Shown here piece by piece: positions 383-45,328 of a stretch of DNA of 64,000 nucleotides (position 1 is the stretch's first letter; each line of letters begins with the position of its first letter). A program made the position numbers and the translations under genes. Source of the DNA: Candidatus Kerfeldbacteria bacterium RIFCSPHIGHO2_12_FULL_48_17 (lineage in GTDB: Bacteria > Patescibacteriota > Patescibacteriia > HO2-48-17). The stretch is from NCBI GenBank assembly GCA_001818775.1, contig MHKD01000042.1:41022-105021 (forward strand). Direction: 5' to 3'. The notes beneath the pieces were generated by a model, which saw only the letters and a program-made list of their open reading frames with translations, searched no databases and was not told the DNA's origin.

Positions 383-3300
383 ATTCCATTCCATTATATA
401 CCCTGATCGATTTTTGACCAACTTTATCAGCAATTTTTGACAAAACACCCGGGTCAGAAGAAATGAGCATTTTCGTATGTATTCTTCTGCCGTTTTCACT
501 GCTGCCGATAAAAAATTCCACCGGACATGACCCGGGAAAATCGGAAAAAATGCGCTTCAGTTCCAGAAGGGTGGTGGGGTGCACCGTGGCCGGAAGCGAT
601 ATGAGAATGCGCTGCGGTGGGATGAATTTCTGTTTGACTTTTTTACTGCTGCTCCGTAAAAAATCCTGAGACGCGTTCCACTTTGGTTCAGCCAGGAGTT
701 TTTGCACGTCTATTTCCACGGCGGCATCCACAATGACCTGCGGAGTGACATCACGGATGCTGAGTTTCCCCTCAATCCGCAAAAATCGCTCTTCTGTCCA
801 CAGATAAGAGGTTTCCTGAAAAATTTTCGGAAAAACCAGAAGTTCAGTTTCACCCGTATGATCAGAAAGTGTGGCAAAGAGCATCTGTTCGCCTTTTTTG
901 GTAACGATTTTTTTTACTTTCGTGATAAGTCCAATGACCCGCACGGGGGCATTATTTTTATACCGCGCCAGCGAAGCCAGCGAAGCAGCGCGTTCTTCGA
1001 GAATATCAGCATACTGAGCCAAGGGGTGCTGAGAAATGTACAGACCAAGGAGTTCTTTTTCCCAGGTCAGGAGCTGGAAAATATTCAACGGGTCAGCTGC
1101 CGCCAGTTTGAGTGGGGGAATATAGCGCGCCCCGTTTTGCTGGAACAAGGAAAACTGCCCCGTATTCGATTCGGTCTGAGCCGTTTTGGCATACTGAAGA
1201 ATGAGCTCAAGATTATGCAGAAGCTGCGAACGGTCACCGAAAGCGTCGAGCGCGCCCGATTTGATCAGACTCTCAACGGATTTTTTATTGAGATCCTTGT
1301 GCTGAATGCGCCGCAAAAAATCCTGCAAAGAAGCAAAACGACCCCCCTCGGTTTTCCGCTCGTCAATAATTTTTCGACTGACACTCCCACCCAGATTTTT
1401 AATGGCCGTCAGTCCAAAGCGGATGCGCGGCTTCCCCGAAGCGAGCGATTCTTTCACTACGGTAAACGTGGAATAGCTTTCATTCACGGCCGGCGGCATC
1501 ACTTCAATTCCCAGATCACGGCATTCCTTCACCTCAATGGCAATGCGATCAGTATTATCACCATCGCTCGTCATGAGAGCGGCCATAAACTGCGCCGGAT
1601 AGTGCGCCTTCAGATATGCCGTCTGGTAGGCGATCATGGCGTAGCACACGGCGTGCGACCGGTTAAAACCATAGCGCGCAAACGGCAGAATAAATTCCCA
1701 CAGCTGCTTCGCGGTACGGGCAGGGATGCCGTTTTTTATCATACCATCAACCATTTTTTGCTCCTGCTGATCAAGCAGCTCCTTGATCTTTTTACCAACG
1801 GCCTTGCGCAACACATCAGCCTCACCGAACGTAAAACCGGCGAGCTGACGAGCAATCTGCATGATTTGTTCTTGATACAGAATAATGCCATATGTTTTTT
1901 GCAGCAACGGCCCCAGCGATTCATGAATATACTCGACGCGCACCCAGCCGTGCTTGCGCGCTATGTAATCAGGTATAAATTCCATCGGCCCAGGACGATA
2001 CAAAGCCACCATTGCGACGATATCTTCAAATTCCGTGGGCTTCAATTCCTTCAAATAGCGCCGCATGCCGGCTGATTCCAGCTGGAATACGCCGATGGTC
2101 TGACCTTTTTGCAACAGCTCGTATGCCGGCTTATCGTCAAGCGGTAAACGATCAATATCAATGACAGCACCCGTTGTCTTGGTTATTATATTCAACGTAT
2201 TACGGATGATGGTCAGGTTTTTCAAACCCAGAAAATCCATTTTCAAAAGCCCCAAATCCTCGACCGGGTGCAGAGAATACTGAGAAATAACGGCCGTATC
2301 GCCCTGCGTTGAATACTGGATACCCGTGTGTTCGGTGAGGGGGTGCTTGGTAATAACGACGCCGCAGGCATGTATGGAAGTATGCCGGGCCACACCTTCG
2401 ATCTTACGCGCGCTCTTCAGTAAACGCTCACAGTCGGGATCATTGGCATGCATCTGTTTTAATTCCGGCACGACGTCAATGGCCTTTTGCAAAGTTGTGA
2501 ACATTGGCACCAATTTTGCTATCCGATCACAGTAACTGTAGGAAAAACCAAGTACGCGTCCGACGTCACGAAGCGCAGCCCGGGCCGCCATCGTTCCAAA
2601 GGTAATAATCTGCGCAACGTGATCCTTGCCATATTGACTTTCCACATAGCGAATGACGTCATCACGCCGTTCGTCATCAAAATCAGTGTCAATATCCGGC
2701 ATGGACACGCGTTCGGGGTTCAAAAACCGCTCAAACAAAAGCTCATACTTTATGGGATCGACGCTGGTAATATTCGTAAGGTAGGCAACCAGGCTGCCGG
2801 CCGCGCTGCCACGGCCAGGTCCGACGACGATGCCGTTTTTCTTGGCCCAGTTGATAAAATCCTGAACAATGAGAAAATAGGAGGCATAACCGGTTTTAGC
2901 GATGACACCGAGTTCATACGCCAAACGGTCGCTGATTTCTGAAGTGACTTGACTATAACGTGCGCGCAAACCCTGGCCACACAACTGCTCAAGTTTTTCC
3001 TGGGCAGTGATCCCGCTGGGAAGTTCGTAGTGGGGCAGTTGGATTTTCCCCAATGCAAGTTCAAACTGACACTGTTTCGCGATTTTGAGCGTGTTTTCCA
3101 AAACCTCGGGATGCGCCGCAAAAACCTGCTCCATCACTTCCGCTGAACGGAAAGAAAAATCATGACCCAGCAAGGTGGGCCTGTCTGTATCCTGAAACAA
3201 TTTTTTTTCACGTATGCATGACAAAATATCCTGCGCTTCAGCGTCGGCATACTCTATATAGTGAACATCATTGGTGGCGACAACAGAAGCCCCAATCATC

Positions 3301-3905
3301 GCCGCCAGTTGAAAAAACATTTCATTCACCCGCATCTGCTGAGCCAGTCCGGGATGATGAAGAACTTCCAGATAAAAATTTTCTTTTCCGAATATATTCT
3401 GAAAAACCGCAGCCACCTTGGCAGCCGCAGCCAAACCAGCATCCAAAGCAACGGTGCCGACCTTTCCCCGGAAACCATGGCTGAGGGCAATGAGGCCATG
3501 GGCATGCGCCGCTAAAATTTTTTCATCAACACTTGGATGTTCGAACCAACCCTGAAGATGGGCAATGGAGGTGAGTTTCAGTAGATTTTTGTAACCGGCA
3601 TCGTTTTTTGCGAGCAAAACCAGGGGATATGCAGGCGCCGTAGCCGCCGCCATGTCAGACAGGGGGAGCGTGGTAACCCACAGCTCCATGCCAAGTATAG
3701 GCTGGATACCGGCACTTTTTGCGGCCTGAAAAAATTCAACCGCACCATACATAACGCCAGAATCCGTCAATGCCAAAGCCGGCATACCCAAAGACTTGGC
3801 TTTCGCAACCAACTGGTGAACCTTTGGCAGGCCTTCCAAAAGACTGTAATCACTGTGCGTATGGAGATGAACGAAATTTTGTGGCATAAGAGGACGCGGG
3901 TACAA
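360..3905 (-). CDS. dnaE: DNA polymerase III alpha subunit (DnaE), 1181 aa
   Basis: N-terminal PHP domain (HLHTHSDYSLLEG...ALTDSGVMYG), polymerase core and OB-fold. Full length is typical of DnaE1. Confidence 0.95.
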   Translation of the reverse strand: MYPRPLMPQNFVHLHTHSDYSLLEGLPKVHQLVAKAKSLGMPALALTDSGVMYGAVEFFQAAKSAGIQPILGMELWVTTLPLSDMAAATAPAYPLVLLAKNDAGYKNLLKLTSIAHLQGWFEHPSVDEKILAAHAHGLIALSHGFRGKVGTVALDAGLAAAAKVAAVFQNIFGKENFYLEVLHHPGLAQQMRVNEMFFQLAAMIGASVVATNDVHYIEYADAEAQDILSCIREKKLFQDTDRPTLLGHDFSFRSAEVMEQVFAAHPEVLENTLKIAKQCQFELALGKIQLPHYELPSGITAQEKLEQLCGQGLRARYSQVTSEISDRLAYELGVIAKTGYASYFLIVQDFINWAKKNGIVVGPGRGSAAGSLVAYLTNITSVDPIKYELLFERFLNPERVSMPDIDTDFDDERRDDVIRYVESQYGKDHVAQIITFGTMAARAALRDVGRVLGFSYSYCDRIAKLVPMFTTLQKAIDVVPELKQMHANDPDCERLLKSARKIEGVARHTSIHACGVVITKHPLTEHTGIQYSTQGDTAVISQYSLHPVEDLGLLKMDFLGLKNLTIIRNTLNIITKTTGAVIDIDRLPLDDKPAYELLQKGQTIGVFQLESAGMRRYLKELKPTEFEDIVAMVALYRPGPMEFIPDYIARKHGWVRVEYIHESLGPLLQKTYGIILYQEQIMQIARQLAGFTFGEADVLRKAVGKKIKELLDQQEQKMVDGMIKNGIPARTAKQLWEFILPFARYGFNRSHAVCYAMIAYQTAYLKAHYPAQFMAALMTSDGDNTDRIAIEVKECRDLGIEVMPPAVNESYSTFTVVKESLASGKPRIRFGLTAIKNLGGSVSRKIIDERKTEGGRFASLQDFLRRIQHKDLNKKSVESLIKSGALDAFGDRSQLLHNLELILQYAKTAQTESNTGQFSLFQQNGARYIPPLKLAAADPLNIFQLLTWEKELLGLYISQHPLAQYADILEERAASLASLARYKNNAPVRVIGLITKVKKIVTKKGEQMLFATLSDHTGETELLVFPKIFQETSYLWTEERFLRIEGKLSIRDVTPQVIVDAAVEIDVQKLLAEPKWNASQDFLRSSSKKVKQKFIPPQRILISLPATVHPTTLLELKRIFSDFPGSCPVEFFIGSSENGRRIHTKMLISSDPGVLSKIADKVGQKSIRVYNGMEYALTAKK

Positions 3906-4037: not shown

Positions 4038-4415
4038 TCAAGAAATGCTTTCTTCGGTTTCATCTTCATCATCCTGATTTTTCACCTGGTCTTGATCAGT
4101 TGCCTTGGTTCTTTTTGCCCGGCGACGAATGGATGAAGACGAACTTTTCCTGGCTCTGAAATCACGAACAAGGCCGCCAATATGCTTAAACTCCTTAACA
4201 AGAAAGGAAATTGATTGCGCTGAAGTAAAAATTTTATCCTTAATAGCCAGAACGGCCCGTTCAATCTCTTCGATCTTCTCCCGAAATTCCTTCACCATTT
4301 CATTGCCCTGCTTGAGCAGTGTGCCGATATAGTACATGATCCAAACCAGAAAAACCGTAAATACCAAAATACAAACCGTAAGGACAATATAAAGATAATC
4401 AAGGGACGTAAGCAT
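4038..4415 (-). CDS. Small membrane protein (N-terminal TM helix, C-terminal coiled-coil and acidic/basic tail), hypothetical
   Basis: ORF track 4038..4466. Start moved to the internal Met (MLTSLDYLYIVLTVCILVFTVFLVWIMYY...). No recognisable family. Confidence 0.4.
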   Translation of the reverse strand: MLTSLDYLYIVLTVCILVFTVFLVWIMYYIGTLLKQGNEMVKEFREKIEEIERAVLAIKDKIFTSAQSISFLVKEFKHIGGLVRDFRARKSSSSSIRRRAKRTKATDQDQVKNQDDEDETEESIS

Positions 4416-4508
4416 ATTTTTTGTGTAATTTTTATTCTGTCTGAGACAACACATGCAGTATAGCATATTTTTTTATTTCGGGAAAAAATGCTAGAATAAA
4501 ACCTAAAG

Positions 4509-4666
4509 GGTCTGTCGCCGAATACCATTTCTGCTGCAATCATGGAATTTTGGCCAGAACCGCTTCAAAATTTTTCGGCTTATATTCCATATAAACCTCA
4601 AAATTTATTCAGCAATTCTGTCACAAAATTCCATGATTTCGTCACGAAAGCGTATTCGGCGACAGA
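4509..4666 (+). mobile_element. MITE-like non-autonomous element, copy A (~158 bp). Has 16-bp terminal inverted repeats, a 14-bp sub-terminal inverted repeat and an 8-bp target-site duplication.
   Basis: Terminal inverted repeats GGTCTGTCGCCGAATA...TATTCGGCGACAGAC. Sub-terminal inverted repeat AATCATGGAATTTT / AAAATTCCATGATT. Flanked by the direct repeat ACCTAAAG (4501-4508 and 4667-4674). No coding capacity for a transposase. Copy B at 16880-17039 is 158/159 identical in inverted orientation. Confidence 0.8.
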
Positions 4667-4689
4667 CACCTAAAGACAAACAAAGTCAT

Positions 4690-5565
4690 ATGGCGGAGAC
4701 AAGAATGAGTGATGCGGAATTTTCTTTCGGGTACTGGTGGGTCACGCACCGAGGGCAGCTACGAAAAACTTCCGGCATTACTCTGGTGATTATACATTTA
4801 CTTCTTATAACAACACTCGTCATCCAGGGAGTGAGTTTTGTGTTTGAAGTCATGCGCACGGCCGACTACTTCGAAACAATGGCACAGCCGGATATCGCCT
4901 ACGCCGACGTCCGAAACAAGCAACAACCGCAAAATATCCAACTGGGCGCGACCCAGGTTTTTGATTCTGATCTGGAAGGCAGAGTGAATATCGCCACGGA
5001 AATCACGAATCCCAACGAACACTGGGCCGTGAAAAAAATAACGTACAGCGCGGTGGTCAATGGCGAATTGCAGTCGCCGGAAACCGATTTCCTTATGGCC
5101 CAGGAACGCCACTTTATCACCACATTTGGCATTGAAGCGGCAAGTGCCGGCCAGGTTCAGGCCACGCTGAATGTAACGGACGTTGAATGGGAGCGCGTGA
5201 ATGCATACACAACGCCGAAAGGCAGGATAGATGTCACTGACATTGAGTTCAGCCCGAGCATTACCGTCGAAGATGCCACGAGCAGCGACCAGGTTTTCAG
5301 TCAGGCGACGGCCGACATAACCAACCGCGATATATTTACTTTCGCCGAAGCGGAATTTATCGTCGTGGCGGAAATACAGGGGGATATCATCGCGGTGAGA
5401 AGAATCATGCTCAAAGACCTTATCCCGAGTGAAACGCAAACACTGAGAGCGCAGTGGAGCAGACGGATAAGTCCGGGGGCGGAAGTGAGCGTTCTGACCC
5501 ATATCAACCTCATCGACAAAACCAACAGGAAACTCAGTTTGACACAACCCGCATCAACTGAGTAG
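4690..5565 (+). CDS. Hypothetical membrane-anchored protein with a beta-rich extracytoplasmic domain
   Basis: ORF track 4633..5565. The first 19 codons (MISSRKRIRRQT...) come from MITE sequence, so the native start is probably ATG at 4690 (MAETRMSDAEF) or 4705. One TM helix (ITLVIIHLLLITTLVIQGV), then two similar beta-rich repeats. Confidence 0.5.
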   Translation: MAETRMSDAEFSFGYWWVTHRGQLRKTSGITLVIIHLLLITTLVIQGVSFVFEVMRTADYFETMAQPDIAYADVRNKQQPQNIQLGATQVFDSDLEGRVNIATEITNPNEHWAVKKITYSAVVNGELQSPETDFLMAQERHFITTFGIEAASAGQVQATLNVTDVEWERVNAYTTPKGRIDVTDIEFSPSITVEDATSSDQVFSQATADITNRDIFTFAEAEFIVVAEIQGDIIAVRRIMLKDLIPSETQTLRAQWSRRISPGAEVSVLTHINLIDKTNRKLSLTQPASTE

Positions 5566-7914: not shown

Positions 7915-9015
7915 ATGGAGAAAATAAAAGAACTCCTCTGGGCTTTCAAACAAAACAAAAAAACGCAAATGATTGCACTGGGAAGTGTAATCATTGCTAT
8001 TGTTGTGATACTTGGGATCCTTTTCTTTACAAAAAATCAGGATGACAGTCAGGCCACCGTGACAAATCTCAACAGCAATACCGGGGACAATCCGGAAAGA
8101 CTGCGAAGGTTTATTGATGGTGTTTTTGTGAGTTCAGGAAATGAAAATCTTCATCCAAAAGCAGTAATGATTGAAAACCTTGTCAGTACGAGGCCACAGA
8201 GCGGGCTAGGACAGGCAAATATGGTATATGAAACACTCGCCGAAGGAGGAATCACTCGGTTTCTTGCTTTCTATGCCGACGTCGAGAAACCACTCAAAGA
8301 AATCGGACCGGTGCGCTCAGCCAGGCCGTATTTTGTGGCTATAGCCGAAGAGTATGGGGCTTTATACGCGCACGCCGGCGGGAGCCCGGAAGCGCTGACA
8401 GGCATTCAGGGAACAAAAAAAATCACCAATCTTGACCAGATAAGCGGGGATCACCCCTATTTTTGGCGGGCGGACGACCGGGAAGCACCGCACAACCTCT
8501 TCACATCAACAGAGTTGTTGGAACGCGCGGCCAGAGACAAACAAGTCACGGAGTCAGGTGATTTTGATCCCTGGAAATTCAAAGACGATGCGACTTTGGA
8601 AGAACGGCCGCAGGATGGCGCAGAACTCATTCTCAATTTTTCCAGCACCGATTACCGGGTACGGTATATGTATGATAGAGAAACCAACACCTATTACCGT
8701 TACCAGGGGCAGGAAAAACACATCGACAAACTCACCAACGAACAGCTCCATCCGAAAAATATTCTTGTGCAAATGACAACAAGTGCGGTTTTGGAAACAG
8801 ACACCGGCAGGCTCAGCATCGAAACATCCGGCGAAGGAAAAGCACTGATGTATTTTGACGGGCAAAAAAAGGAAGGCACATGGAAGAAGAGCGAATCAGG
8901 ACGCACGATTTTTTACGACGAAAATGGCCGGGAAGTGGAAATGAATGCCGGTCAAACCTGGATAGAGGTCATCCCGAACGACAAAGAGATACTCTATAAT
9001 CAGACCAGTCCGTAA
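7915..9015 (+). CDS. N-terminally membrane-anchored exported protein, paralogue 1 of a tandem pair (possibly DUF3048/YerB-like)
   Basis: Signal-anchor (IALGSVIIAIVVILGILFF). Blocks conserved with the next gene: GGITRF.A.Y...EIGPVRSARPY...ALYAHAGGSPEAL...APHNLFTSTELL. The family name is from memory only. Confidence 0.55.
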   Translation: MEKIKELLWAFKQNKKTQMIALGSVIIAIVVILGILFFTKNQDDSQATVTNLNSNTGDNPERLRRFIDGVFVSSGNENLHPKAVMIENLVSTRPQSGLGQANMVYETLAEGGITRFLAFYADVEKPLKEIGPVRSARPYFVAIAEEYGALYAHAGGSPEALTGIQGTKKITNLDQISGDHPYFWRADDREAPHNLFTSTELLERAARDKQVTESGDFDPWKFKDDATLEERPQDGAELILNFSSTDYRVRYMYDRETNTYYRYQGQEKHIDKLTNEQLHPKNILVQMTTSAVLETDTGRLSIETSGEGKALMYFDGQKKEGTWKKSESGRTIFYDENGREVEMNAGQTWIEVIPNDKEILYNQTSP

Positions 9016-9024
9016 TATACGCCG

Positions 9025-10161
9025 ATGCCAAAAGAAAACAAAGAAAAGAAAAATACAGAAATAAAAATAAAGGAGACGCCCTTTTGGAAAAAATACAGGA
9101 TCGCCATTATTTTTGCGACGCTCGCGATCATCATTGCCGGTACCGGCATCACCTACGCGTACATGAACCAATCCACACCACCGGCGACAGCGAAAAAAGA
9201 AACAAAAAACACCCAGGCGGAAAAAACCACCCCGAGCAACGAACGACACCTCGACGGCAGGCGAGTCGCAATAAAAGATGCCAATAAATATCCGGTGGCT
9301 GTAATGATTGAAAATCTCAGCCCGGTACGGCCCCAAGCCGGACTGGGACAGGCGCAGGTGGTATATGAATCGTTGGTTGAAGGAGGGATAACGCGTTTCA
9401 TGGCCATCTATGACCTCAGTGAAAAAATTGATGAAATCGGCCCGGTGCGGTCAGCCAGACCCTACTACCTCGAATGGGTTTCAGAATATGACGCTCTGTA
9501 CGCGCACGCCGGGGGGAGCCCGGAAGCGCTGCAGGCGATTTCAGGTTTCAATATACATGATCTGAACCAGATCGGCGGGGCACAGGGCTATTACTGGCGA
9601 AGCGACAGCGTCCCGGCTCCACACAACCTTTTTACATCCACGGAGTTACTTACCCGTGCCATAAACGATAACAAACTCGCTGATGTAGAACCGACCTACA
9701 CTCCATGGACATTTACCGATGACCCGGAGGACAACAAAAAAAGCACGGACAAAGAAGTCCAAGCAACTGCAGCCTCGAACATCAGCATTGATTTTTCGAG
9801 CCCTTCCTACAAAGTGGAATATGCCTACGACGCGACCACAAAAGAGTACCTGCGTTCAAACGGCGGCGTACCACACACGGACAAAAACACGGAACAACAA
9901 ATTCGGGCTAAAACGGTGGTGGTTGTCAGCATACCGCCGGTTACTGATGTCGGAGAAAAGGGCAGGATCACCCTGAGTATTCATGGTGGAGGACCGGTGC
10001 GCATTGCCCGTTTTGGCGAAGTGATAACGGGCACGTGGAAAAAAGCCGATCGCACGGCGCGGACGGAATTTTTTGACGCACGTGGGGAAAAAATTGACCT
10101 GGGTCGGGGAAATATCTGGGTGGAAATTGTTCCGGAGGATAAGGGAGTGGAATTTAAGTAA
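9025..10161 (+). CDS. N-terminally membrane-anchored exported protein, paralogue 2 of the tandem pair
   Basis: Same architecture and motif blocks as 7915-9015 (roughly 45-50% identity by eye). Ends 5 nt before the ABC ATPase start. Confidence 0.55.
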   Translation: MPKENKEKKNTEIKIKETPFWKKYRIAIIFATLAIIIAGTGITYAYMNQSTPPATAKKETKNTQAEKTTPSNERHLDGRRVAIKDANKYPVAVMIENLSPVRPQAGLGQAQVVYESLVEGGITRFMAIYDLSEKIDEIGPVRSARPYYLEWVSEYDALYAHAGGSPEALQAISGFNIHDLNQIGGAQGYYWRSDSVPAPHNLFTSTELLTRAINDNKLADVEPTYTPWTFTDDPEDNKKSTDKEVQATAASNISIDFSSPSYKVEYAYDATTKEYLRSNGGVPHTDKNTEQQIRAKTVVVVSIPPVTDVGEKGRITLSIHGGGPVRIARFGEVITGTWKKADRTARTEFFDARGEKIDLGRGNIWVEIVPEDKGVEFK

Positions 10162-15186: not shown

Positions 15187-15957
15187 ATGTCAGATCAGAA
15201 AACACCAAAAATTTCCGTCGTTATTCCGGCATATAATGAAGTCAAAAAAATCAGGCGATGTCTTACGGCTCTGCAAAAACAAAGCATAAGAGACCCCTAC
15301 GAGATTATCGTTGTTGACAATGGCAGCAGTGATGATACGGCGCCAGTTGCCCGCAAGTTTGGTGTTACGGTCCTTGAAGAAAAAACCCGGGGTGTAGCCT
15401 GTGCCCGGCAGAGGGGTTTTCAGGCGGCGCGGGGGGACATAATTGCCAGTACCGATGCCGATACGATCGTTCCCCCTGATTGGCTGCAAACAATACAAAA
15501 CGCCATGGCTGATCCAAAACGCGTCGGTGTCATGGGTACTTTTTTATTCTACGACCGGGGAAAAATATGGAATGGTTTGACAAAAATAATAACACCGGCT
15601 ATCCGCTTCATTGACTGGATCGTTGGTCATGGACAAAATCATTTTATCGGAATGAATTTTGCCGTCAGAAAGGAAGCCTTCAGAAAAAGTGCGGGGTTCA
15701 ACACCAACCTCAAATACGGTGAAGATATCGATCTTGCAAAAAAAATGAAAAAGTACGGCCGAATAGCGTATATAAAAAAAATGAGGGTCCTTACGCACTC
15801 GCGCCGGTATCAGCTCAACCTGGCATTCGCGAAGTATGTGGTGAACTTTATAAAGACAGACATTACCGGAAAACCATTTCGCAATGAGTTACCGAAAATA
15901 GAGGGAAAAAAGGAAGAAAAAATCCGAAAAAACGAAACTCACTCAGACGCTAGATAA
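15187..15957 (+). CDS. Family-2 glycosyltransferase (soluble GT-A)
   Basis: KISVVIPAYNEVKKIRRCL...IIVVDNGSSDDT...TDADT. Track ORF 14722..15957 is over-extended into the upstream gene. True start is the ATG 3 nt after the upstream stop. Confidence 0.85.
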   Translation: MSDQKTPKISVVIPAYNEVKKIRRCLTALQKQSIRDPYEIIVVDNGSSDDTAPVARKFGVTVLEEKTRGVACARQRGFQAARGDIIASTDADTIVPPDWLQTIQNAMADPKRVGVMGTFLFYDRGKIWNGLTKIITPAIRFIDWIVGHGQNHFIGMNFAVRKEAFRKSAGFNTNLKYGEDIDLAKKMKKYGRIAYIKKMRVLTHSRRYQLNLAFAKYVVNFIKTDITGKPFRNELPKIEGKKEEKIRKNETHSDAR

Positions 15958-16915
15958 TATCGACGCCGAAACCCCGTATAAACTCGCTTGCGGACATCAC
16001 TTTCCCGCCGGCGGGTTGTATTTTTTCTATGAGAAGTTGTGTCTGCCGGGCACAGGGAACAACCAGAGCGTCGGACACGTCGGACAGGACACCGGAATCC
16101 TGACTTCCCTGGGCGCGTGCCTGAACAAGTCTTAGGCGCAAACCGTCTTTTTGACGCACATGAAACACTCCTGGCCATAAAGCAAACGCCCGAATTTTTC
16201 GTTCGATCTCGGTCGCCGGTTCGGAAAAATCAACCCGGCCATCTTCCTTTGTGAGAAGCCGACTGTAGGTTGCCTTTGCGTCATCCTGGGGAACCGGGAT
16301 GACTCTCTGGTCAAGGTACTGCGGCAAAACACGGTCAAGATCACGCGCCCCGAGCTCAAAAAGAGTGCGCGATAAAGAAAAAAAGTCTTCCTGCGGGAGC
16401 AGTATATGGCTGCTTTGAGAAAGTATCGGTCCGGTATCCATGCGGACATCCATCTTCATAATGGTTACCCCGGTTGGTGAGGTATTGTGCCACAAAGCAA
16501 ACTGCAAAGGCGACGGCCCCCGCCAGACCGGAAGAAGGGAAGGATGAATATTGAGAAACCCGCTCGGGGGAAGGGACAGTATACCTTCAGGAATAATTTT
16601 TCCGTACGCAGCCGTCACAGCAACATCGGGGGATAATTTTCGCAGAATAGCAGCAACACGGGGATCCTGAAGTTTTTCCGGTTGAAAAACCGGTATGCCG
16701 TGCTGTTCGGCCGAAAGTTTCACCGGAGTTGACCGGAGCGCCTTACCCCGACCCTGAGGTTTATCAGGCTGCGTAAAAACCCCGACGACGGCATACCGGG
16801 GATTTTCAACGAGCACCCGCAAACAAGGTAAAACAAAATCAGGCGTACCGAAAAATACAACCCGAACCGGCTCAATATGGGTCTGTCGCCGAATACGCTT
16901 TCGTGACGAAATCAT
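15950..16915 (-). CDS. fmt: Methionyl-tRNA formyltransferase (Fmt), whose current start codon is supplied by the MITE
   Basis: VRVVFFGTPDFVLPCLRVL...VVGVFTQPDKPQGRGKAL and the C-terminal Fmt domain. The ancestral ATG (17052..17050, overlapping the def stop) is now out of frame. The first in-frame ATG is 16915 inside MITE copy B, giving the N-terminus MISSRKRIRRQT-HIEPV... Confidence 0.85.
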   Translation of the reverse strand: MISSRKRIRRQTHIEPVRVVFFGTPDFVLPCLRVLVENPRYAVVGVFTQPDKPQGRGKALRSTPVKLSAEQHGIPVFQPEKLQDPRVAAILRKLSPDVAVTAAYGKIIPEGILSLPPSGFLNIHPSLLPVWRGPSPLQFALWHNTSPTGVTIMKMDVRMDTGPILSQSSHILLPQEDFFSLSRTLFELGARDLDRVLPQYLDQRVIPVPQDDAKATYSRLLTKEDGRVDFSEPATEIERKIRAFALWPGVFHVRQKDGLRLRLVQARAQGSQDSGVLSDVSDALVVPCARQTQLLIEKIQPAGGKVMSASEFIRGFGVDII

Positions 16916-17039
16916 GGAATTTTGTGACAGAATTGCTGAATAAATTTTGAGGTTTATATGGAATATAAGCCGAAAAATTTTGAAACGGTTCTGGCCAAAA
17001 TTCCATGATTGCAGCAGAAATGGTATTCGGCGACAGACC
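16880..17039 (-). mobile_element. MITE-like element, copy B. Inverted relative to copy A, 158/159 identical, with a 7-bp target-site duplication.
   Basis: Same terminal and sub-terminal inverted repeats as copy A. Flanked by CAATATG direct repeats (16873-16879 and 17040-17046). Inserted 4 bp downstream of the def stop / ancestral fmt start overlap. Confidence 0.8.
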
Positions 17040-17048
17040 CAATATGCG

Positions 17049-17576
17049 TCATATACGTGTGCGTGAAGGGTCACCACCTGCGCCGCCAGCCGCGCCATCC
17101 TTAAGACCGCCGCTGACAATACGCTCGGCCTTATCAATAAAAAGAATACCGTTTAAGTGATCGACCTCGTGCTGAAAAACCTTTGCTGTGAGACCGGTAG
17201 CCTTGACATCAACAGGTTTACCGTGCCTGTCAAGAGCCTTAAGACGAACCTTCACGGGTCTCTTTACCAGGCCATATACACCCGGCACAGACAAACACCC
17301 TTCTTCCATATAGGTTTCACGTTGCGAAAAAGAAACAATCTTTGGATTCACAAAAACCTGGGCATCGTGACGGGTTTTCCCGCCCAAAACAAAAACCTGG
17401 TGCGGTGTGCCCACCTGTGTGGCGGCAATACCGATACCATCATCAGCAATCATGGTATCGGTGAGATCCTCAATAAGCGCCTGTACTTCTTTGCTGCGCA
17501 GCTTTTCAAGGGTGATGTTTTTTGCCACCTCACGCAGCCGTTTATCGGGATGTTTTAATACGGGAAGTATGCTCAT
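17049..17576 (-). CDS. def: Peptide deformylase
   Basis: Motifs GIGIAATQVG, EGCLSVPG and HEVDHLNG. Start moved to the Met of MSILPVLKHPD (track start at 17669 is over-extended). Stop TGA at 17051..17049. Confidence 0.9.
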   Translation of the reverse strand: MSILPVLKHPDKRLREVAKNITLEKLRSKEVQALIEDLTDTMIADDGIGIAATQVGTPHQVFVLGGKTRHDAQVFVNPKIVSFSQRETYMEEGCLSVPGVYGLVKRPVKVRLKALDRHGKPVDVKATGLTAKVFQHEVDHLNGILFIDKAERIVSGGLKDGAAGGAGGDPSRTRI

Positions 17577-17598
17577 ATCGGTAGTAATCCTAAATGTA

Positions 17599-19266
17599 CT
17601 AGAAAAATTCATCGGGGTCAATGTCAACCAGGGCATCGGCAGGTGGACGCCAATCGCTTTTTGGGTCACGAAGCAATTCCGCCGCTTCGCGGCCGTCCCT
17701 GTAAAAAACCTTCACCAAACGGGCAAAAGGTGGATAATGAAAAATCTTGCGCCTGTTGAGTTCGGAATCATAAAAACCCCTATAATCGTGGCTCTGTACG
17801 AAACGGAAAATGGGATGCTCAGGAGCATGGGTCTGTATAAACACCTCGGGCACATGTGCAGCAAAAAAAGTCAGGAGTTGGTATGTTCTCTCGCCAGCGC
17901 GCCACTGGGGACGGCTCAGCATCTGGTCAACACCCAAAACAATGCCCGCCTGGAAATCGGCAAGCTGAATGCGCTCGAAAGCAAATTCCGTGCCAACAAC
18001 AATATCGGCTTTTTCCCAATTCACATTTTCTTTCACCGTTCTGTCAAGGAGGGCAAGACGCTTATACGGAAAAAGTTTGGCCAGTTCCGAAACAATCTTC
18101 TGTGTGCCGAAACCGGCCGTATACAAACGGGTAGACTGGCAATGCTCGCACCGAACAACCTGGCCGTAAGGATAAAGATGCTTACACTCCGAACAGACCA
18201 GATAACGGGCAAACCCGGTCCGGTTGATAAAAATAAAGCAACGTTTTTTCGCCAAAACACCCAGTGCCGCTTCACTGAAAACTGAATAATTCTTCGCCAT
18301 ACGTTCGGCGTGCATATCAACCACGGTTATGCGCACATCTTTTTCACGCCCGCCCGCAAGAGAAATCCAATCAGCAGCATACGCCGTTGTCACCCGCGGA
18401 GCGCGACTGGTAAAAATCAGGCGCAGGTTGTATTTTTTTTGCAGATACGAAGCAACATCATGAACGGAAAAACGCGGATTCTGATCGTAATTTTTATGAT
18501 GCACGCTGTCCTCATCATCAATAATAATCGTAGAAAGACGCCGAGGAAGAGAAAACAGCGCTGACTTTGTTCCGATGAGAACACGCCGTCGCGAATTTTT
18601 TTGACGCGCTGAAAGCCAAAACGCCCAATAGTCGCGCATCGACAGGGCACGGTCAAGAACACGGGGAGAAAAATCAGCAAAAATCCCCGCAAAGTACACA
18701 GCAGCTGAACGCGAAGGGGTAATGAGAAGGATATCACCCTTACTTTTTTGGAGAATGCCCCGATAAAATGCCAATTTGTGCTGAAGTGACACATACATCA
18801 ACAAAAAAGGTTGCACTGCTTTTTCGGACAGGGCCTGATGAACCGCCGCGGTGATCGATGAAATGTCTTTACGTCGAACAGAAGCGCCGGAGCCAGAAGT
18901 TGATGCACGTCGCGGCTGTGAAAAAACAGGTGCGGAAGGGACATCCGCATCTCGCCTCGGCAGCTCCGGCAGCCAGGTACGGAGACTCAAAGCAGGGGAT
19001 ACAAAATAAAAATCACTGAACCAAGTAAGCGCGTCCAAAAAACGGTCATCGAGAACACCAGAAAAAAGGACACGGTCAATGGTTTTCAGTCGCCGCTTAG
19101 TGCCAGAAGTCTTCTTCAGTTTTCTCACAACACCAACGCAAAAAGAACGGCGCCAGGGAATACGCACAATATCACCAACCGACACATGCATGTCCGTGGG
19201 TATGCGGTAATCAAAAAAACCCAAAGTGCGAACCAGACGCAATCTCGGGATAATTTCAGCAATCAT
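17599..19266 (-). CDS. priA: Primosomal protein N' (PriA)-like helicase. Motif II is retained but no Walker A is recognisable.
   Basis: N-terminal 3' DNA-binding-like domain, DExH-like IIIDDEDSVHHKNYD, and zinc ribbon CSECK...CEHCQ. No GxGKT/S motif anywhere in the protein. Lies upstream of def-fmt, as in Firmicutes-type priA-def-fmt operons. Confidence 0.7.
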   Translation of the reverse strand: MIAEIIPRLRLVRTLGFFDYRIPTDMHVSVGDIVRIPWRRSFCVGVVRKLKKTSGTKRRLKTIDRVLFSGVLDDRFLDALTWFSDFYFVSPALSLRTWLPELPRRDADVPSAPVFSQPRRASTSGSGASVRRKDISSITAAVHQALSEKAVQPFLLMYVSLQHKLAFYRGILQKSKGDILLITPSRSAAVYFAGIFADFSPRVLDRALSMRDYWAFWLSARQKNSRRRVLIGTKSALFSLPRRLSTIIIDDEDSVHHKNYDQNPRFSVHDVASYLQKKYNLRLIFTSRAPRVTTAYAADWISLAGGREKDVRITVVDMHAERMAKNYSVFSEAALGVLAKKRCFIFINRTGFARYLVCSECKHLYPYGQVVRCEHCQSTRLYTAGFGTQKIVSELAKLFPYKRLALLDRTVKENVNWEKADIVVGTEFAFERIQLADFQAGIVLGVDQMLSRPQWRAGERTYQLLTFFAAHVPEVFIQTHAPEHPIFRFVQSHDYRGFYDSELNRRKIFHYPPFARLVKVFYRDGREAAELLRDPKSDWRPPADALVDIDPDEFF

Positions 19267-33478: not shown

Positions 33479-34540
33479 TTATTTCATTATTCTCTCGTCA
33501 TGCGTTGAGAGTACAAAAATATCACGCAATGCTTCAATATCCTCGAGAACACGGCCCGTACCGCGGACAACGGCCGTGAGTGGGTCATCAACCACCTTGA
33601 CGGGAACCTGGGTGATTTTCTGAATAACCTTGTCAAAACCACGCAATAAGGCACCGCCACCGGACATTAAAATCCCCCGTTCATAAATATCAGCCACCAG
33701 TTCCGGGGGCGTACTCTCCAAAGTATCTTTAATGGCGTCGGAAAACAGCTTCACGGAACGGCCGATGGCCTCGCGGACGTGTTCACTGCTCACCGTCATC
33801 TCGCGCGGCAGACCCGTGATGATATCACGACCGCGAACCTTGGATTCCAGAACGTCGACATCTTCGCTGGCCGAACCGATGGCGATTTTCAATTCTTCGG
33901 CCGTACGTTCACCAAGCAGCAGATTAAACTGATCGCGGTGGTAGGCAACGATATTGCGGTTAAGCTCATCCCCGGCGATGCGCAGTGATTTTGAAGTGAC
34001 CACCCCACCCAGAGCGACCACGGCAATTTCCGTCGTACCGCCACCGATATCCACAATCATGTGACCCGTGGCATCCTGAACCGGAACACGGGCGCCAATC
34101 GCCGCTGCCATGGGCTCTTCAATCAAAAACACCTCACGCGCACCGGCATTCAAAGCCGCGTCTTCAACGGCTTTTCTCTCAACTTCCGTAACACCTAAAG
34201 GAATACCAATGACAATGCGCGGACGGGGTAAAATAGTAAACGTCTCCCGATGAACCTTTTCAATAAAATGCTTCAGCATCTTTTCCGTAACTTCAAAATC
34301 AGAAACAACACCCTCAACCAAAGGCCGGATAGCAACAATATGACTGGGAGTCCTGCCAATCATATTGCGGGCTTCCTGACCAACGGCTAAAACATGACCG
34401 GTGCGTTCATTCACAGCCACAACCGAAGGCTCGTTAATCACAATGCCCTTATCACGAACATAGACCAGGGTATTGGCTGTACCCAAATCAATGCCCAAAT
34501 CCTTTGAAAATCTTCCAAAAAAATTCTTAATAATACCCAT
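33479..34540 (-). CDS. mreB: Rod shape-determining protein MreB (actin homologue), copy 1
   Basis: GIDLGTANTLVYV...DIGGGTTEIAV...GGGALLRG motifs of the MreB/actin fold. Confidence 0.9.
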   Translation of the reverse strand: MGIIKNFFGRFSKDLGIDLGTANTLVYVRDKGIVINEPSVVAVNERTGHVLAVGQEARNMIGRTPSHIVAIRPLVEGVVSDFEVTEKMLKHFIEKVHRETFTILPRPRIVIGIPLGVTEVERKAVEDAALNAGAREVFLIEEPMAAAIGARVPVQDATGHMIVDIGGGTTEIAVVALGGVVTSKSLRIAGDELNRNIVAYHRDQFNLLLGERTAEELKIAIGSASEDVDVLESKVRGRDIITGLPREMTVSSEHVREAIGRSVKLFSDAIKDTLESTPPELVADIYERGILMSGGGALLRGFDKVIQKITQVPVKVVDDPLTAVVRGTGRVLEDIEALRDIFVLSTHDERIMK

Positions 34541-39667: not shown

Positions 39668-40693
39668 CTAACGCGCCGTTAAACGAGTGGCAACAATACT
39701 GCGCTTATACGACTCAAGATTCTCCAAAGCGATGCCGGTTCCTTTCACAACGCACAACATGGGGTCTTCCGCCACATAAGCAGGAACATCCGTGGCCCTG
39801 GACAAAAGCTGATCAAGATTGCGCAGCTGACCGGAACCGCCGGTAATAACCATCCCCTTATCCATAACATCAGCGGCCAATTCCGGTGGTGTTTCCTGCA
39901 ACACCGATTTCACCGCCTGAATAATCGCGTTAAGCTCATCCTGAATGGCGTCAGTGACGTCATGCGATGTGAGGGTTATCGTACGCGGCAGACCGGAAAC
40001 AACATCACGACCACGCACGTCCATTGCTCCCATTTCTTTCAGGGGCAAAGCAGAGCCTATTTCTATTTTAATATGTTCGGCGGTCCGCTCGCCGATGGAG
40101 AGTCCGTATTTCTTACGAATGTATTCACTGATGGCCACATCAAATTTATTCCCACCGACGCGCACCGAGGTACTGGCAACAATGCCGCCCAAAGAAATAA
40201 CGGCTATTTCACTGGTACCGCCGCCAATGTCAATGACCATGTGCCCCGAAGCCGATCCAATGGGAATATTGGCGCCAATCGCCGCGGCCATGGGCTCCTT
40301 AATAATATATGTCGCCTTCGCGCCCGCCTGAACAGCAGCGTCAATAACGGCCTTGCGTTCGGTGGAGGTAATCCCGGCCGGAACAGCCACCATAACCTCG
40401 GGTCTGACAATACGCACGCCACCGATAGCCTTGTTAATAAAATAACGGAGCATGCTCTCGGTGGTTTTATAATCGGCAATGACTCCATCTTTCAACGGCC
40501 TGGAAGCGACGATGGAATCGGGTGTGCGACCGAGCATTTCTTTCGCCTCGTTGCCAACGGCCAAAACTTTTTTATCAGTAATGGAAATCGCAACAACCGA
40601 AGGCTCATTAATAACAATACCGCGCTTGGGAATATACACCAGCGTGTTGGCGGTACCGAGATCGATACCAATTTTTTTGATCAGATTAAACAT
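39668..40693 (-). CDS. MreB/Mbl-family actin homologue, copy 2
   Basis: IGIDLGTANTLVYI...DIGGGTSEIAV. Second MreB paralogue, embedded among envelope-glycan genes. Confidence 0.85.
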   Translation of the reverse strand: MFNLIKKIGIDLGTANTLVYIPKRGIVINEPSVVAISITDKKVLAVGNEAKEMLGRTPDSIVASRPLKDGVIADYKTTESMLRYFINKAIGGVRIVRPEVMVAVPAGITSTERKAVIDAAVQAGAKATYIIKEPMAAAIGANIPIGSASGHMVIDIGGGTSEIAVISLGGIVASTSVRVGGNKFDVAISEYIRKKYGLSIGERTAEHIKIEIGSALPLKEMGAMDVRGRDVVSGLPRTITLTSHDVTDAIQDELNAIIQAVKSVLQETPPELAADVMDKGMVITGGSGQLRNLDQLLSRATDVPAYVAEDPMLCVVKGTGIALENLESYKRSIVATRLTAR

Positions 40694-42763: not shown

Positions 42764-43600
42764 TTATTTTGTACACGGTTGATACTTTGGTTGCCTCAAA
42801 CCGTATTTAAATATGAATTTAACCCAATCTTTAATGTGCAAACGGGTTGTATAACTGAAAATGATCTTCAGGCCACTGGTTGCGGCTGATTCGCGTTTAT
42901 GAAAATGGGTAATGTGTGTGAAAGGATAGTATACAACTTTTAGCCCATAATCCCAAGCGCGGAAGCAAAACTCAAGATCCGAAAAATACAAAAAGAAACG
43001 CTCGTCAAGCAAGCCAATCTGGTCAAAAATGGAACGTCTGATGTACATATTCGAACCCAAAACCCAATCAACTTCACGAACAGAGGCATGATCAAAATCC
43101 TTCATAAGATAACGATCTATATCCTTCTTCGCCCAGGGAAGTTTATAAAAAAATGTCCGACGATAAATCGGGGTCAGAAGTTTATAAAAACGAAAACAAG
43201 AATACTGAACAGTTTCATCGGTGTTATACAATTTCGGACCGACAATGCCAACGTCCTGATGTTCATCCATATAATGAAGAATCTTGATAATATCATCGGT
43301 ATCAGAATACAAGATATCGGGATTCATAATCAGGACATATTTCCCCTTGGCTTCACGGATGCCGACGTTATTTCCGGCGGTATAACCGGTATTGGTATTC
43401 ATCGCAATAAAACGCAGCGGTACTTTCAATTCGGCTTTTAAAAACTTTTCCTCCATCATCTCCACCGTGCCATCATGGGAAGCATTATCAAGGACAATCA
43501 ATTCATACTGAAACGGCAAATGCAAATCAAGAATACTCTGAATACCGTTCTTCAGCATTTCCCGATCTTTGTAATTGAGAATAATAATCGATAATTCCAT
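42764..43600 (-). CDS. Family-2 glycosyltransferase
   Basis: MELSIIILNYKDREMLKNGIQSIL...LDNASHDGTVEMM (GT-A, DxD). Confidence 0.85.
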   Translation of the reverse strand: MELSIIILNYKDREMLKNGIQSILDLHLPFQYELIVLDNASHDGTVEMMEEKFLKAELKVPLRFIAMNTNTGYTAGNNVGIREAKGKYVLIMNPDILYSDTDDIIKILHYMDEHQDVGIVGPKLYNTDETVQYSCFRFYKLLTPIYRRTFFYKLPWAKKDIDRYLMKDFDHASVREVDWVLGSNMYIRRSIFDQIGLLDERFFLYFSDLEFCFRAWDYGLKVVYYPFTHITHFHKRESAATSGLKIIFSYTTRLHIKDWVKFIFKYGLRQPKYQPCTK

Positions 43601-43602
43601 GA

Positions 43603-44652
43603 CTAGGCTTTAACAAACCAATGATGAACTTCCCCCGGGCGCAATGTGGAATGGGAGAATATGTATTTTCTTTTCATTTTCATCCGCGCCAACTGACGAA
43701 AGAAAAGAGGTATAGCAGCCAGTGTCCTCTGTTCAAACAGAAGAACGTAAACAAATTTTTTCAGCTCGTACCAAAAAATAAAAGGAAAATCGCGCCAAAA
43801 ATTCCGTGCTGAATCATTTTTCAGCAACACCAACCAGTGATTTTTGTAGGACTGAATGTTATCAATCTTTGATTTTCCCCGCCGGTTGGCCATGGTTCCC
43901 CGATCACTCAAATCCGTACTTCTGCTGACCCGACGATTATGATAGGCAATGGCAGAGGGTAAATACCACAGCGAATAACCGGCATGCCTCAATCGCCAGG
44001 ACATATCATAATCATCTTTATACGCCATGATATCTTCATCAAAATACTCGTGTTCAAATTTCACCGCCTCAAGCGCCGAGCGCCGGAAACACACCAAAGC
44101 GCCGGAAATCCCGAAAACTTCCTGCGGAACATTATACTGACCCGTATCAACCTCGCTCTCACCACGGTCAATGGCGCGCCGGTTGCGAAAAACCTGCACC
44201 CCCGTGGTATCTATCTTAAAAGATTTCACCAAAGTTTTCAACCGGACAAGATCAGAGCTGAACTCCATCTGTTCCCCGGGGAATTTAAGCAATTTTCCGC
44301 CAACAGCCGCAATTTTTTCGTCCTTAAAACCCTTCAAAATCTCCTCAATAAAATTGGGTTCCAAAACAATATCATGATTGCAAATAATGATATACTCCCC
44401 CTTCGCAGCATTGATCCCAATATTAAACCCTTTGGAAAACCAATAATTTTCCGGATTCTCGATCAGCCGTACATCGGGAAACTCTTTTTTCAGAACTGCG
44501 ACCGTATCATCAGGAGAAGCATTATCAATCATGATAAGCTCGATATTGGTATAGGTTTGTCCCCGGATGGAAGCAATGAGAGGACGTAAATACGGCACGC
44601 TCTTGTAGGTAAGAACCAATACAGAAACCAATGGACTGTGTGCGTGGGGCAT
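43603..44652 (-). CDS. Family-2 glycosyltransferase
   Basis: VSVLVLTYKSVPYLRPLIASIRGQTYTNIELIMIDNASPDDTV. Start at the Met of MPHAHSPL. Confidence 0.85.
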   Translation of the reverse strand: MPHAHSPLVSVLVLTYKSVPYLRPLIASIRGQTYTNIELIMIDNASPDDTVAVLKKEFPDVRLIENPENYWFSKGFNIGINAAKGEYIIICNHDIVLEPNFIEEILKGFKDEKIAAVGGKLLKFPGEQMEFSSDLVRLKTLVKSFKIDTTGVQVFRNRRAIDRGESEVDTGQYNVPQEVFGISGALVCFRRSALEAVKFEHEYFDEDIMAYKDDYDMSWRLRHAGYSLWYLPSAIAYHNRRVSRSTDLSDRGTMANRRGKSKIDNIQSYKNHWLVLLKNDSARNFWRDFPFIFWYELKKFVYVLLFEQRTLAAIPLFFRQLARMKMKRKYIFSHSTLRPGEVHHWFVKA

Positions 44653-44656
44653 AGTA

Positions 44657-45328
44657 CTATTTTTTATGAAGAGTAAAGAAAAAATAGATGAGAACAAACA
44701 GCAGGGCGAGCGCGCCCAAGAGAGCGATGATTTGATACGGGGCTAAGAACAGGTAGTCTCCCAGAAAACTCAAAAGTAACGTATGCGGTATAAAACCTAT
44801 AGCCACTATAGCGGCGAACCGCCGAAAGGACAAGCGCGTCAGGCCGAGAAGAAAACTCAAAATATCCACCGGGAAAATCGGGAAAATATAAAAGACAATG
44901 AGATGCTTGTCAAAACGATGGAGGTAATCCGTCGCTTTTTTAATCTGCTTTTCATGGAAGAGCTTCTCGACCAGGGGCTGTCCGAAAACATCCGCCAAAA
45001 GAAAAGCCAGGCAAGAGCCAACCACGCTACCTATATAGGCATACAGCGAACCCAGCCAGGGCCCAAAGAGAAAACCGGAAACAACTGAAATAATCCCCCC
45101 AGGTATAGGCGCGACAACCACCTCTCCGACAATAATAACGATAATAAGCAATGGCCCCCATGGTCCGGCGTAAGTAATAAAATCCCGCAAGAGCACTTTA
45201 TCAGTGAGGATATCTTTATATGCCCACAGGAAAAAAAACAGGGTCGCGACAACAGCAATCAAAATAAAAGCTCCCGCCAGACGTTTCGTGGGAAAAGGGT
45301 GAAGGTTAGGATGTGGATTTGGTTCCAT
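44657..45328 (-). CDS. DedA/TVP38-family membrane protein
   Basis: GEVVVAPIPGGI...FRRFAAIVAIGFIPHTLL, the characteristic DedA re-entrant motifs. Confidence 0.75.
   Translation of the reverse strand: MEPNPHPNLHPFPTKRLAGAFILIAVVATLFFFLWAYKDILTDKVLLRDFITYAGPWGPLLIIVIIVGEVVVAPIPGGIISVVSGFLFGPWLGSLYAYIGSVVGSCLAFLLADVFGQPLVEKLFHEKQIKKATDYLHRFDKHLIVFYIFPIFPVDILSFLLGLTRLSFRRFAAIVAIGFIPHTLLLSFLGDYLFLAPYQIIALLGALALLFVLIYFFFTLHKK

Follow-up and report, generated by a model that had tools for sequence, protein, structure and literature searches.

Background

The MITEs (miniature inverted-repeat transposable elements) of bacteria, such as Correia (CREE) of Neisseria, ERIC, RUP/BOX and Nezha, are short and non-coding, are bounded by terminal inverted repeats and a target duplication and occur in many copies; when co-transcribed, the element forms a long RNA hairpin able to change the expression of its neighbours (CREE: PMC2649163). 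Fusion of MITEs to host open reading frames (ORFs), hairpins within co-transcripts and altered neighbour expression are well documented (PMC10969869, PMC2649163, PMC2229807), and MITE ORFs fusing in frame with host ORFs have been called "not unusual" (PMC10969869). Here we describe a MITE with these same features, its hairpin being predicted, in a 64,000-nt stretch (the window; contig MHKD01000042.1, positions 41,022 to 105,021) of the genome of Candidatus Kerfeldbacteria bacterium RIFCSPHIGHO2_12_FULL_48_17, an uncultivated groundwater bacterium of the Patescibacteria identified by an exact Def protein match (OGY81679.1). One copy of the element, copy B, lies between the peptide deformylase gene def and the formyltransferase gene fmt, inside a translationally coupled gene overlap and not, as copies of its family almost always do, in an intergenic spacer. 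Fmt and Def are normally made together, and def is needed only when fmt works.

The element is unlike Correia in its ends, which carry no Correia 26-bp repeat, and in its target, since Correia duplicates TA and this family five A/T-rich bases. In the latter respect it resembles the TIMEs and Tn3-family transposons, which have 5-bp (occasionally 6-bp) A/T-rich duplications and A/T-rich targets, and its predicted hairpin of -80.3 kcal/mol falls within the -70 to -115 kcal/mol reported in the same work (PMC4133298). On the other hand, TIMEs are 256-262 bp long and usually single-copy, whereas this family has 161-163-bp elements and 37-bp derivatives in high copy number, and we could show no homology to the 38-bp Tn3-family repeat. 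Its ends start with GGGTCTG, resembling what we take to be the start of the Tn3 repeat (GGGGTCTG); this likeness covers the first 7 nt and does not demonstrate homology. No Tn3-type transposase was seen in the fetched loci.

Rickettsia palindromic elements (RPEs) are likewise palindromes of ~150 bp, partly stop-free and translatable within a host protein. RPEs are frequent inside coding regions, whereas of 98 bounded copies of the present family only one is embedded in an open frame that extends for 60 codons or more on each side (41-49% for random placements), and the insertion of 167 nt is not a multiple of three. An RPE-like reading as a "translatable element" was rejected because of this strong depletion and because the copies are related. 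The junction also has the layout of termination-reinitiation coupling with start unmasking: the ATGA is kept, a start lies in a predicted stem whose other strand belongs to the upstream reading frame, and 38 nt separate stop and start. Unlike known cases, such coupling would here be an accident of transposon insertion and would pass through an intervening junk ORF. The insertion adds to the documented MITE events a case from a little-studied lineage, at an unusually sensitive site; in a full-text literature search on MITEs together with Patescibacteria or the candidate phyla radiation, the MITE term appeared in no top-ranked paper.

Insertion of a MITE in the def-fmt junction

A recent insertion of a non-autonomous MITE has separated fmt from its def-overlapping start. 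The 17-mer repeat end GGTCTGTCGCCGAATAC occurs four times in the window (0.11 expected by chance), forming two inverted pairs (4509/4668 and 16880/17039) at copies A and B, the 160-nt cores of which differ at only 2 of 160 positions. The terminal repeats are perfect over 18 nt, followed by imperfect complementarity out to ~50 nt. The ORFs of copy B are short by-products of the palindrome, and a transposase gene is absent from its 162 bp. The target, ATATT, lay 4-8 nt past the def stop, within codons 3-4 of the ancestral fmt. Since 167 nt were added, the ancestral start is now out of frame with the enzyme, while def and the fmt core are each still intact.

Excision in silico of the element and one duplication copy gave ATGACGCATATTGAGCCG, equal to MTHIEPVRVVFFGTPDF, and restored the fmt start: the junction then reads ...ACGTATATGACGCATATTGAGCCGGTT..., with the restored start MTHIEPVRVVFFG and the uninterrupted (empty-site) sequence ACGCATATTGAGCCGG. 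The restored ATG (17052..17050) overlaps the TGA of def as ATGA. A prior inspection of the window, made without database searches (the sequence-only reading), had placed an inverted-repeat element in this junction and proposed an ancestral ATGA coupling. The repeat ends, the duplication and the exact excision product bear out the first claim, and the reconstructed overlap, shared with the closest relative, bears out the second. That reading had also taken the element as 160 bp with a 7-bp CAATATG duplication; the added length of 167 nt stands, whereas the family-wide limits are 162 bp and the 5-bp ATATT. The 5-bp duplication is perfect in 55 of 97 bounded copies, as opposed to 1 of 97 in a shifted control. 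A 7-bp duplication, compatible with only 3 of the 55 clean copies (both window copies among them), was rejected.

In the closest relative (P0002, 64% identical Fmt; locus L001), def and fmt overlap by ATGA and Fmt starts with MSTSRRQRVLFFGTPNF, and in the next one (P0003, 49% identical; locus L203) a gap of 3 nt separates the two genes, with the same downstream glycosyltransferase neighbour. As a more distant Parcubacteria relative has a def-fmt gap of 350 nt, tight coupling is local to the clade and not universal. The two genes overlap in the reconstructed ancestor and in L001 and abut in L203; in the window the overlapping ATG has ceased to lead into fmt. The Gly of the FGTP motif lies at position 7-13 in most of 120 Fmt homologues, and at 13 in the reconstruction, 23 in the form starting MISSRK within the element and 84 in a 382-aa form; the net 10-residue N-terminal extension thus falls in the upper tail of natural Fmt variation. 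The orthologue alignment, in which HIEPV corresponds to residue 2 of E. coli Fmt, agrees with the earlier proposal that the MTHIEPV N-terminus is ancestral.

Candidate start codons of fmt

The sequence 5′ of the ancestral ATG was untouched by the insertion, and this ATG now opens a short ORF with the peptide MTHIGSVAEYHFCCNHGILAR (Table 1); frame translation gave 32 codons for it instead of the ~27 counted in the sequence-only reading. Between its stop and position 16915 there is no ATG, GTG or TTG. The ATG at 16915, carried by the element, is in frame with fmt and yields MISSRKRIRRQT fused to HIEPV, as had been predicted, with QTHIEPVR as the junction peptide; NCBI uses the same start (OGY81727.1). 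The Fmt core was recognised by Pfam PF00551 and PF02911 and by a PDB Fmt match (E = 6e-62) in which query residue 15 aligned to E. coli Fmt residue 2. Because HIEPV aligns to that residue, a complete Fmt cannot come from any start lying 3′ of the element, where the next in-frame TTG/GTG would remove the first beta-strand and the GTP loop.

ATG 16915 had also been described as the only in-frame ATG upstream of the core, which does not hold: ATG 17098, within the 3′ end of def, is in frame too, and no stop interrupts the fmt frame between 17152 and the far end of the element. Other in-frame starts in the 3′ end of def are GTG 17077/17074 and TTG 17119/17137. The read-through leader would contain the peptides LIFHINLK, IPFLLQSWNFGQNR and IYSAILSQNSMISSR. 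On the fmt strand of the element, 2 of the 3 frames are stop-free. The ENA gene call P0122 starts at ATG 17098 (382 aa) on 3 contigs, so that the public records disagree on the fmt start (321 aa at NCBI vs 382 aa at ENA), both calls being predicted.

RNA folding, promoters and start context

A consensus scan of the element detected no promoter-like site in the fmt orientation, and no U-tract that could act as a terminator follows its hairpin, so that fmt would have to be read from the def transcript. A promoter of its own for fmt within the element was rejected, as the lone site detected (16980..17009, +) points into def antisense and is within chance expectation. A weak symmetric promoter on the fmt side would put the ATG inside the -10 box, and hence outside the transcript.

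The element RNA is predicted to fold end to end, and the minimum free energy given above corresponds to z = -9.1. In the free mRNA, ATG 16915 is predicted to be buried in the long hairpin, paired with 17005..17007. If the translated 5′ arm is kept single-stranded, the mean unpaired probability over 16935..16901 goes up from 0.23 to 0.43.

For 29 of 52 ORFs no match resembling a Shine-Dalgarno (SD) site was found near any N-terminal candidate start, and 4-mer matches were near background. The genome thus appears to initiate translation largely without SD sites, and an SD-based ranking of starts was dropped since they are barely used. The A+T content at -20..-1 averages 68% for 40 unambiguous starts in the window, which show few SD matches, compared with 50% before internal ATGs, and the A/T-rich, SD-less context of ATG 16915 resembles that of the native leaders. 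The C-terminal tail of Def beyond its Pfam domain (17049..17110, -) is unusual and Gly/Ala-rich (GGLKDGAAGGAGGDPSRTRI); the G+C-rich coding sequence of this tail makes the alternative upstream fmt starts appear atypical.

Expression of fmt after the insertion

With a probability of roughly 45%, we propose that fmt is now read through a relay, from def to the 32-codon ORF and from there, by SD-less reinitiation, to ATG 16915. def and fmt would be co-transcribed through the element, and ribosomes ending def would restart at the unchanged ATGA junction and translate the 32-codon junk ORF. Translation of this ORF through the 5′ arm and the tip would unzip the hairpin that buries ATG 16915, and the ribosome would then stop at the TAA and reinitiate 38 nt further on. 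The product would be Fmt with MISSRKRIRRQT replacing MT, and Fmt output is probably lower than before the insertion. A more demanding version, in which translation of the decoy ORF is required to unzip the hairpin and pass the ribosome to the element ATG, so that coupling would have been rewired and not broken, is one that we hold with greater doubt.

The in-frame ATG itself may be a lucky by-product of the palindromic CATG of this subfamily, and not an evolved cassette. If the insertion were neutral, an in-frame ATG would arise with a chance of 1 in 3, while it would be required if fmt matters, which suggests a likelihood ratio of ~3 for retained function. As the family is almost absent from ORF interiors, a copy that cuts a gene is exceptional and may have needed rescue.

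Several points weigh against the relay. Reinitiation over 38 nt without an SD site is inefficient in model bacteria, as seen in E. coli studies, and fmt is dispensable in several bacteria. Because the insertion is so recent, the intact fmt ORF is uninformative on selection, and because two of the three strand frames are stop-free, fmt could just as well be fed from a start farther upstream. A local hairpin within the 3′ arm is predicted to leave the start region only ~43% unpaired, even once the 5′ arm has been opened. No insertion-free allele was found in the retrieved Def contigs, the protein collection or the metagenome scan.

The sequence-only reading had offered a choice between a portable start supplied by the element end and compromised fmt expression; this was reasonable, and it missed a third option, an upstream start reading through the element. 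Of the alternatives to the relay, the most serious is that fmt is off or strongly reduced, which we regard as less probable than the relay. The insertion would then be young, polar and neutral to slightly harmful, its ATG and open frame coincidental, and the organism would tolerate little formylation of its initiator tRNA, or none. The burial of the ATG in a predicted hairpin of -80 kcal/mol fits such silencing, as do the lack in the element of an SD site and of a promoter-like site on the fmt strand, and the viability of several bacteria that have lost fmt. So does the youth of the insertion, given the near identity of the two copies, which leaves intact ORFs uninformative. The ATG is confined to this subfamily, none of the other sampled copies provides a start, an in-frame ATG would arise by chance one time in three, and two of the three frames are open. 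However, the insertion is present on every contig from several samples and assemblies, with no empty site, and def has been kept intact; moreover, the avoidance of gene interiors by the family argues that disruptive copies are purged, and the context of ATG 16915 is like that of native starts.

Less probable still is a start inside def, at ATG 17098 or GTG 17077/17074, with translation through the element and a leader of 54-61 residues. The frame is open from 17152 onwards, automatic gene calling picked ATG 17098 on three contigs, and a ribosome coming from there would presumably melt the hairpin itself. Yet the contexts of these starts (Table 1) are G+C-rich and unlike the genome mean, the AAGG by ATG 17098 has no spacer, and the codons lie inside the actively translated def in a different frame. 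In the ancestor ATG 17098 opened only a 17-codon dead-end ORF, with no history as a start. The 61-residue, partly hydrophobic leader would be far beyond the range of the orthologues, and the element-encoded peptide occurs in no other protein-cluster representative.

Misassembly induced by the repeat, which would have placed the element in the junction artificially, is very improbable. Contigs do break inside the repeat (L199, L200, L202) and one (L201) is chimeric, but the duplication is perfect on both sides, the excision yields an exact orthologue-like start with the ATGA overlap, and both the 105.7-kb scaffold at NCBI and ENA contigs of ~60 kb run across the full junction.

Ribosomal bypassing, with take-off at the ATT of the left duplication and landing on the ATT of the right one to skip 167 nt and give the ancestral MTHIEPV..., is hardly credible: the duplication would supply a take-off codon and a matching one for landing, and a strong hairpin begins at the take-off site, two features of known bypass sites (T4 gene 60, yeast mitochondrial bypass elements), but the take-off codon is followed by GGG and not by a stop codon, a nascent chain of 4 residues makes a nascent-peptide signal impossible, the gap exceeds the known 50 nt more than threefold, and nothing in the data calls for bypassing.

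Public contigs and chimeric assemblies

Ten contigs carry the exact Def, and the five distinct places retrieved from them all run from the same junction into the element, one of them spanning it completely; the full read-through ORF is present on 3 contigs. The reconstructed 311-aa Fmt was absent from a collection of 15 billion proteins, and a single metagenome scan with the Fmt protein gave a best match of only 43% identity.

In L201 (ena:ERZ27254763:k141_484018), at bases ~784-969, the def of 48_17 runs into a MITE whose 3′ part switches to the subfamily of Kerfeldbacteria 42_19 and leaves into the right flank (CTTTAAACAGGA) of the copy at L080. This contig is a cross-species misassembly caused by the shared MITE of two co-occurring Kerfeldbacteria species. 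In a 327-aa protein-level assembly (P0001; SRC SRR3990167_3147922), the translation of a diverged MITE (MEFWPEPFQNFWAYFPYKTPNFFINSVKKFHDFV) passes into Fmt at LPCLRVLV, with the tripeptide DFV common to both sides of the join and the first beta-strand missing; a chimeric protein assembly and a deletion variant are the two explanations considered.

The element family

The family is common to several classes of Patescibacteria. Among its hosts are another Kerfeldbacteria species, with copies 90-92% identical, Magasanikbacteria, Falkowbacteria and three further metagenome-assembled genomes, in two of which contigs often terminate in the repeat. Single matches of the 17-mer in unrelated phyla were at the calculated chance level for a 17-mer in 596 Gb. 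The bounded copies that we identified number at least 98, spread over several Patescibacteria genomes, some of which carry dozens. The commonest size class was 37 bp (two ends back to back; 39 copies), followed by 161-163 bp (34), 44 bp (8), 75 bp (7) and 190 bp (1). The copies combine terminal inverted repeats, a duplication of fixed length that is ~90% A+T, small size without a transposase gene, and dispersal, as expected of a MITE. In many cases an outward ORF has its first ATG 0-55 nt downstream of the copy, and the element often adjoins or overlaps gene termini.

The ATG of the element belongs to a palindromic CATG found in both arms in this subfamily only; the Kerfeldbacteria 42_19 copies, 92% identical, have TCTACGATT where the window copies have TCCATGATT. 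Only 2 of the 98 bounded copies, both in the window, contain an ATG that precedes an outward ORF, so that a family-wide portable start cassette is not supported; the sequence-only reading had offered a portable cassette as one of two outcomes. A stop-free frame was present in 28 of 35 full-length copies, the copies being related, and in 10% of shuffles. The 55-aa element peptide in the fmt frame found no candidate among protein-cluster representatives, a search in which the 12-residue tag alone is below detection.

Among the 37-bp derivatives, 20 of 39 have a perfect 5-bp duplication. Each adds 42 nt (14 codons) with its duplication, and none of the six frames of the repeat contains a stop; despite these open frames, the derivatives were not found deep inside ORFs. 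They occur at L004, L017, L039, L051, L057, L075 and other loci (H43-bin112_1, Modern_marine.mb.217). A single full-length copy, at L075 (2242..2402), was found within a long open frame; it is read through in frame 65 codons into the ORF 2087..3586, which encodes a multi-pass membrane protein of 499 aa. This copy may be a genuine in-frame insertion; alternatively, the gene may in fact start downstream of the element. At L021 of Kerfeldbacteria 42_19, a 440-aa ORF (1697..3019, -) ends within a MITE end with the tail ...WGLSPNTLSSPYASKTATRK, and the frame of an ORF with an RNase HII-like core (1126..1944, -) extends upstream through another repeat end (GVCRRIRFHL).

For the cognate transposase, no recurrent large ORF was found between or beside the repeat ends in the 115 fetched loci, whole genomes not having been searched. 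Inverted ends 0.4-6 kb apart, where an autonomous partner was sought, enclose ordinary genes such as those for a methyltransferase and RNase HII; flanking 5-mers are common to only two such end pairs, a number that A/T-rich targets could plausibly yield by chance. An all-against-all comparison of 481 ORFs returned only between-genome orthologues and no multi-copy ORF. An Rfam search of the element gave only sub-threshold miRNA-hairpin noise and no family, and a blastn search of plasmids gave no match to it.

Copy A and the gene neighbourhood

The coordinates of the features discussed are collected in Table 1. Copy A occupies a divergent intergenic region that would be only ~56 nt long without it, and it ends 21 nt upstream of the ATG (4690) of the next gene. 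Its own ATG at 4633 happens to share the frame of the downstream membrane-protein ORF (4633..5565, +); that gene is given a start at 4690 (291 aa) or 4705 (286 aa) in public gene calls, which never use 4633. Because CATG is palindromic, the opposite end of the element also carries an outward-facing ATG (MIAAEMVFGDRP...), at 17005..17160 (+) and 4292..4543 (-), and in copy B this ATG begins an ORF of 51 codons that is antisense to the 3′ end of def. The weak promoter-like site TTGAAA-18-CATGAT (16980..17009, +) points the same way as this antisense ORF.

The Def protein matches Pfam PF01327 (E = 8e-48) over residues 4-152, and its translation shows the motifs GIGIAATQ, EGCLS and HEVDH. Elsewhere in the window, diverged direct repeats of 72-88% identity lie between neighbouring genes (8349..8397/9483..9531, 34416..34495/40590..40669 and 43442..47604); these are unrelated to the MITE and are probably paralogous gene segments.

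Table 1. Positions, strands and properties of the features described in the window
Feature	Position	Strand	Remarks
MITE copy A	4508..4669	+	duplication CTAAA at 4503..4507 and 4670..4674
fmt as annotated at NCBI	15950..16915	-	321 aa, MISSRKRIRRQT + HIEPV...; formyltransferase core intact
Target-site duplication, right copy	16874..16878	-	ATATT
MITE copy B	16879..17040	-	162 bp, 41% GC, 79% self-complementary; canonical orientation on minus strand
Right terminal inverted repeat	16879..16896	-	GTATTCGGCGACAGACCC on minus strand; perfect 18 nt
Element-borne ATG (16915), in frame with fmt	16913..16915	-	first ATG/GTG/TTG after the short-ORF stop, 38 nt away; 65% A+T at -20..-1
Short ORF opened by the ancestral fmt ATG (17052..17050)	16954..17052	-	32 codons, MTHIGSVAEYHFCCNHGILARTVSKFFGLYSI; ends with TAA 16956..16954
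Left terminal inverted repeat	17023..17040	-	GGGTCTGTCGCCGAATAC; perfect 18 nt
Target-site duplication, left copy	17041..17045	-	ATATT
def (peptide deformylase)	17576..17049	-	175 aa, intact; stop TGA 17051..17049
In-frame GTG codons in def 3′ end	17077/17074		15% A+T at -20..-1
Alternative in-frame ATG (17098) in def 3′ end	17096..17098	-	382-aa Fmt with 61-aa leader; 40% A+T at -20..-1
Promoter-like site upstream of def	17593..17621	-	TTGACC-17-TACATT; consensus match only
priA	19266..17599	-	window gene upstream of def

Significance

The practical consequence concerns the annotation of the fmt start. Beyond that, the locus documents a MITE family in the Patescibacteria, whose mobile elements are little described. 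As a natural allele with a transposon between intact def and fmt, it is a ready test case for the importance of their coupling, and it can also inform start-codon choice in genomes without SD sites and the effects of MITE hairpins on downstream translation. If the proposed relay is true, it would be a natural, transposon-made, two-step and structure-gated translational relay between functionally linked genes, in a bacterium that does not rely on SD sites.

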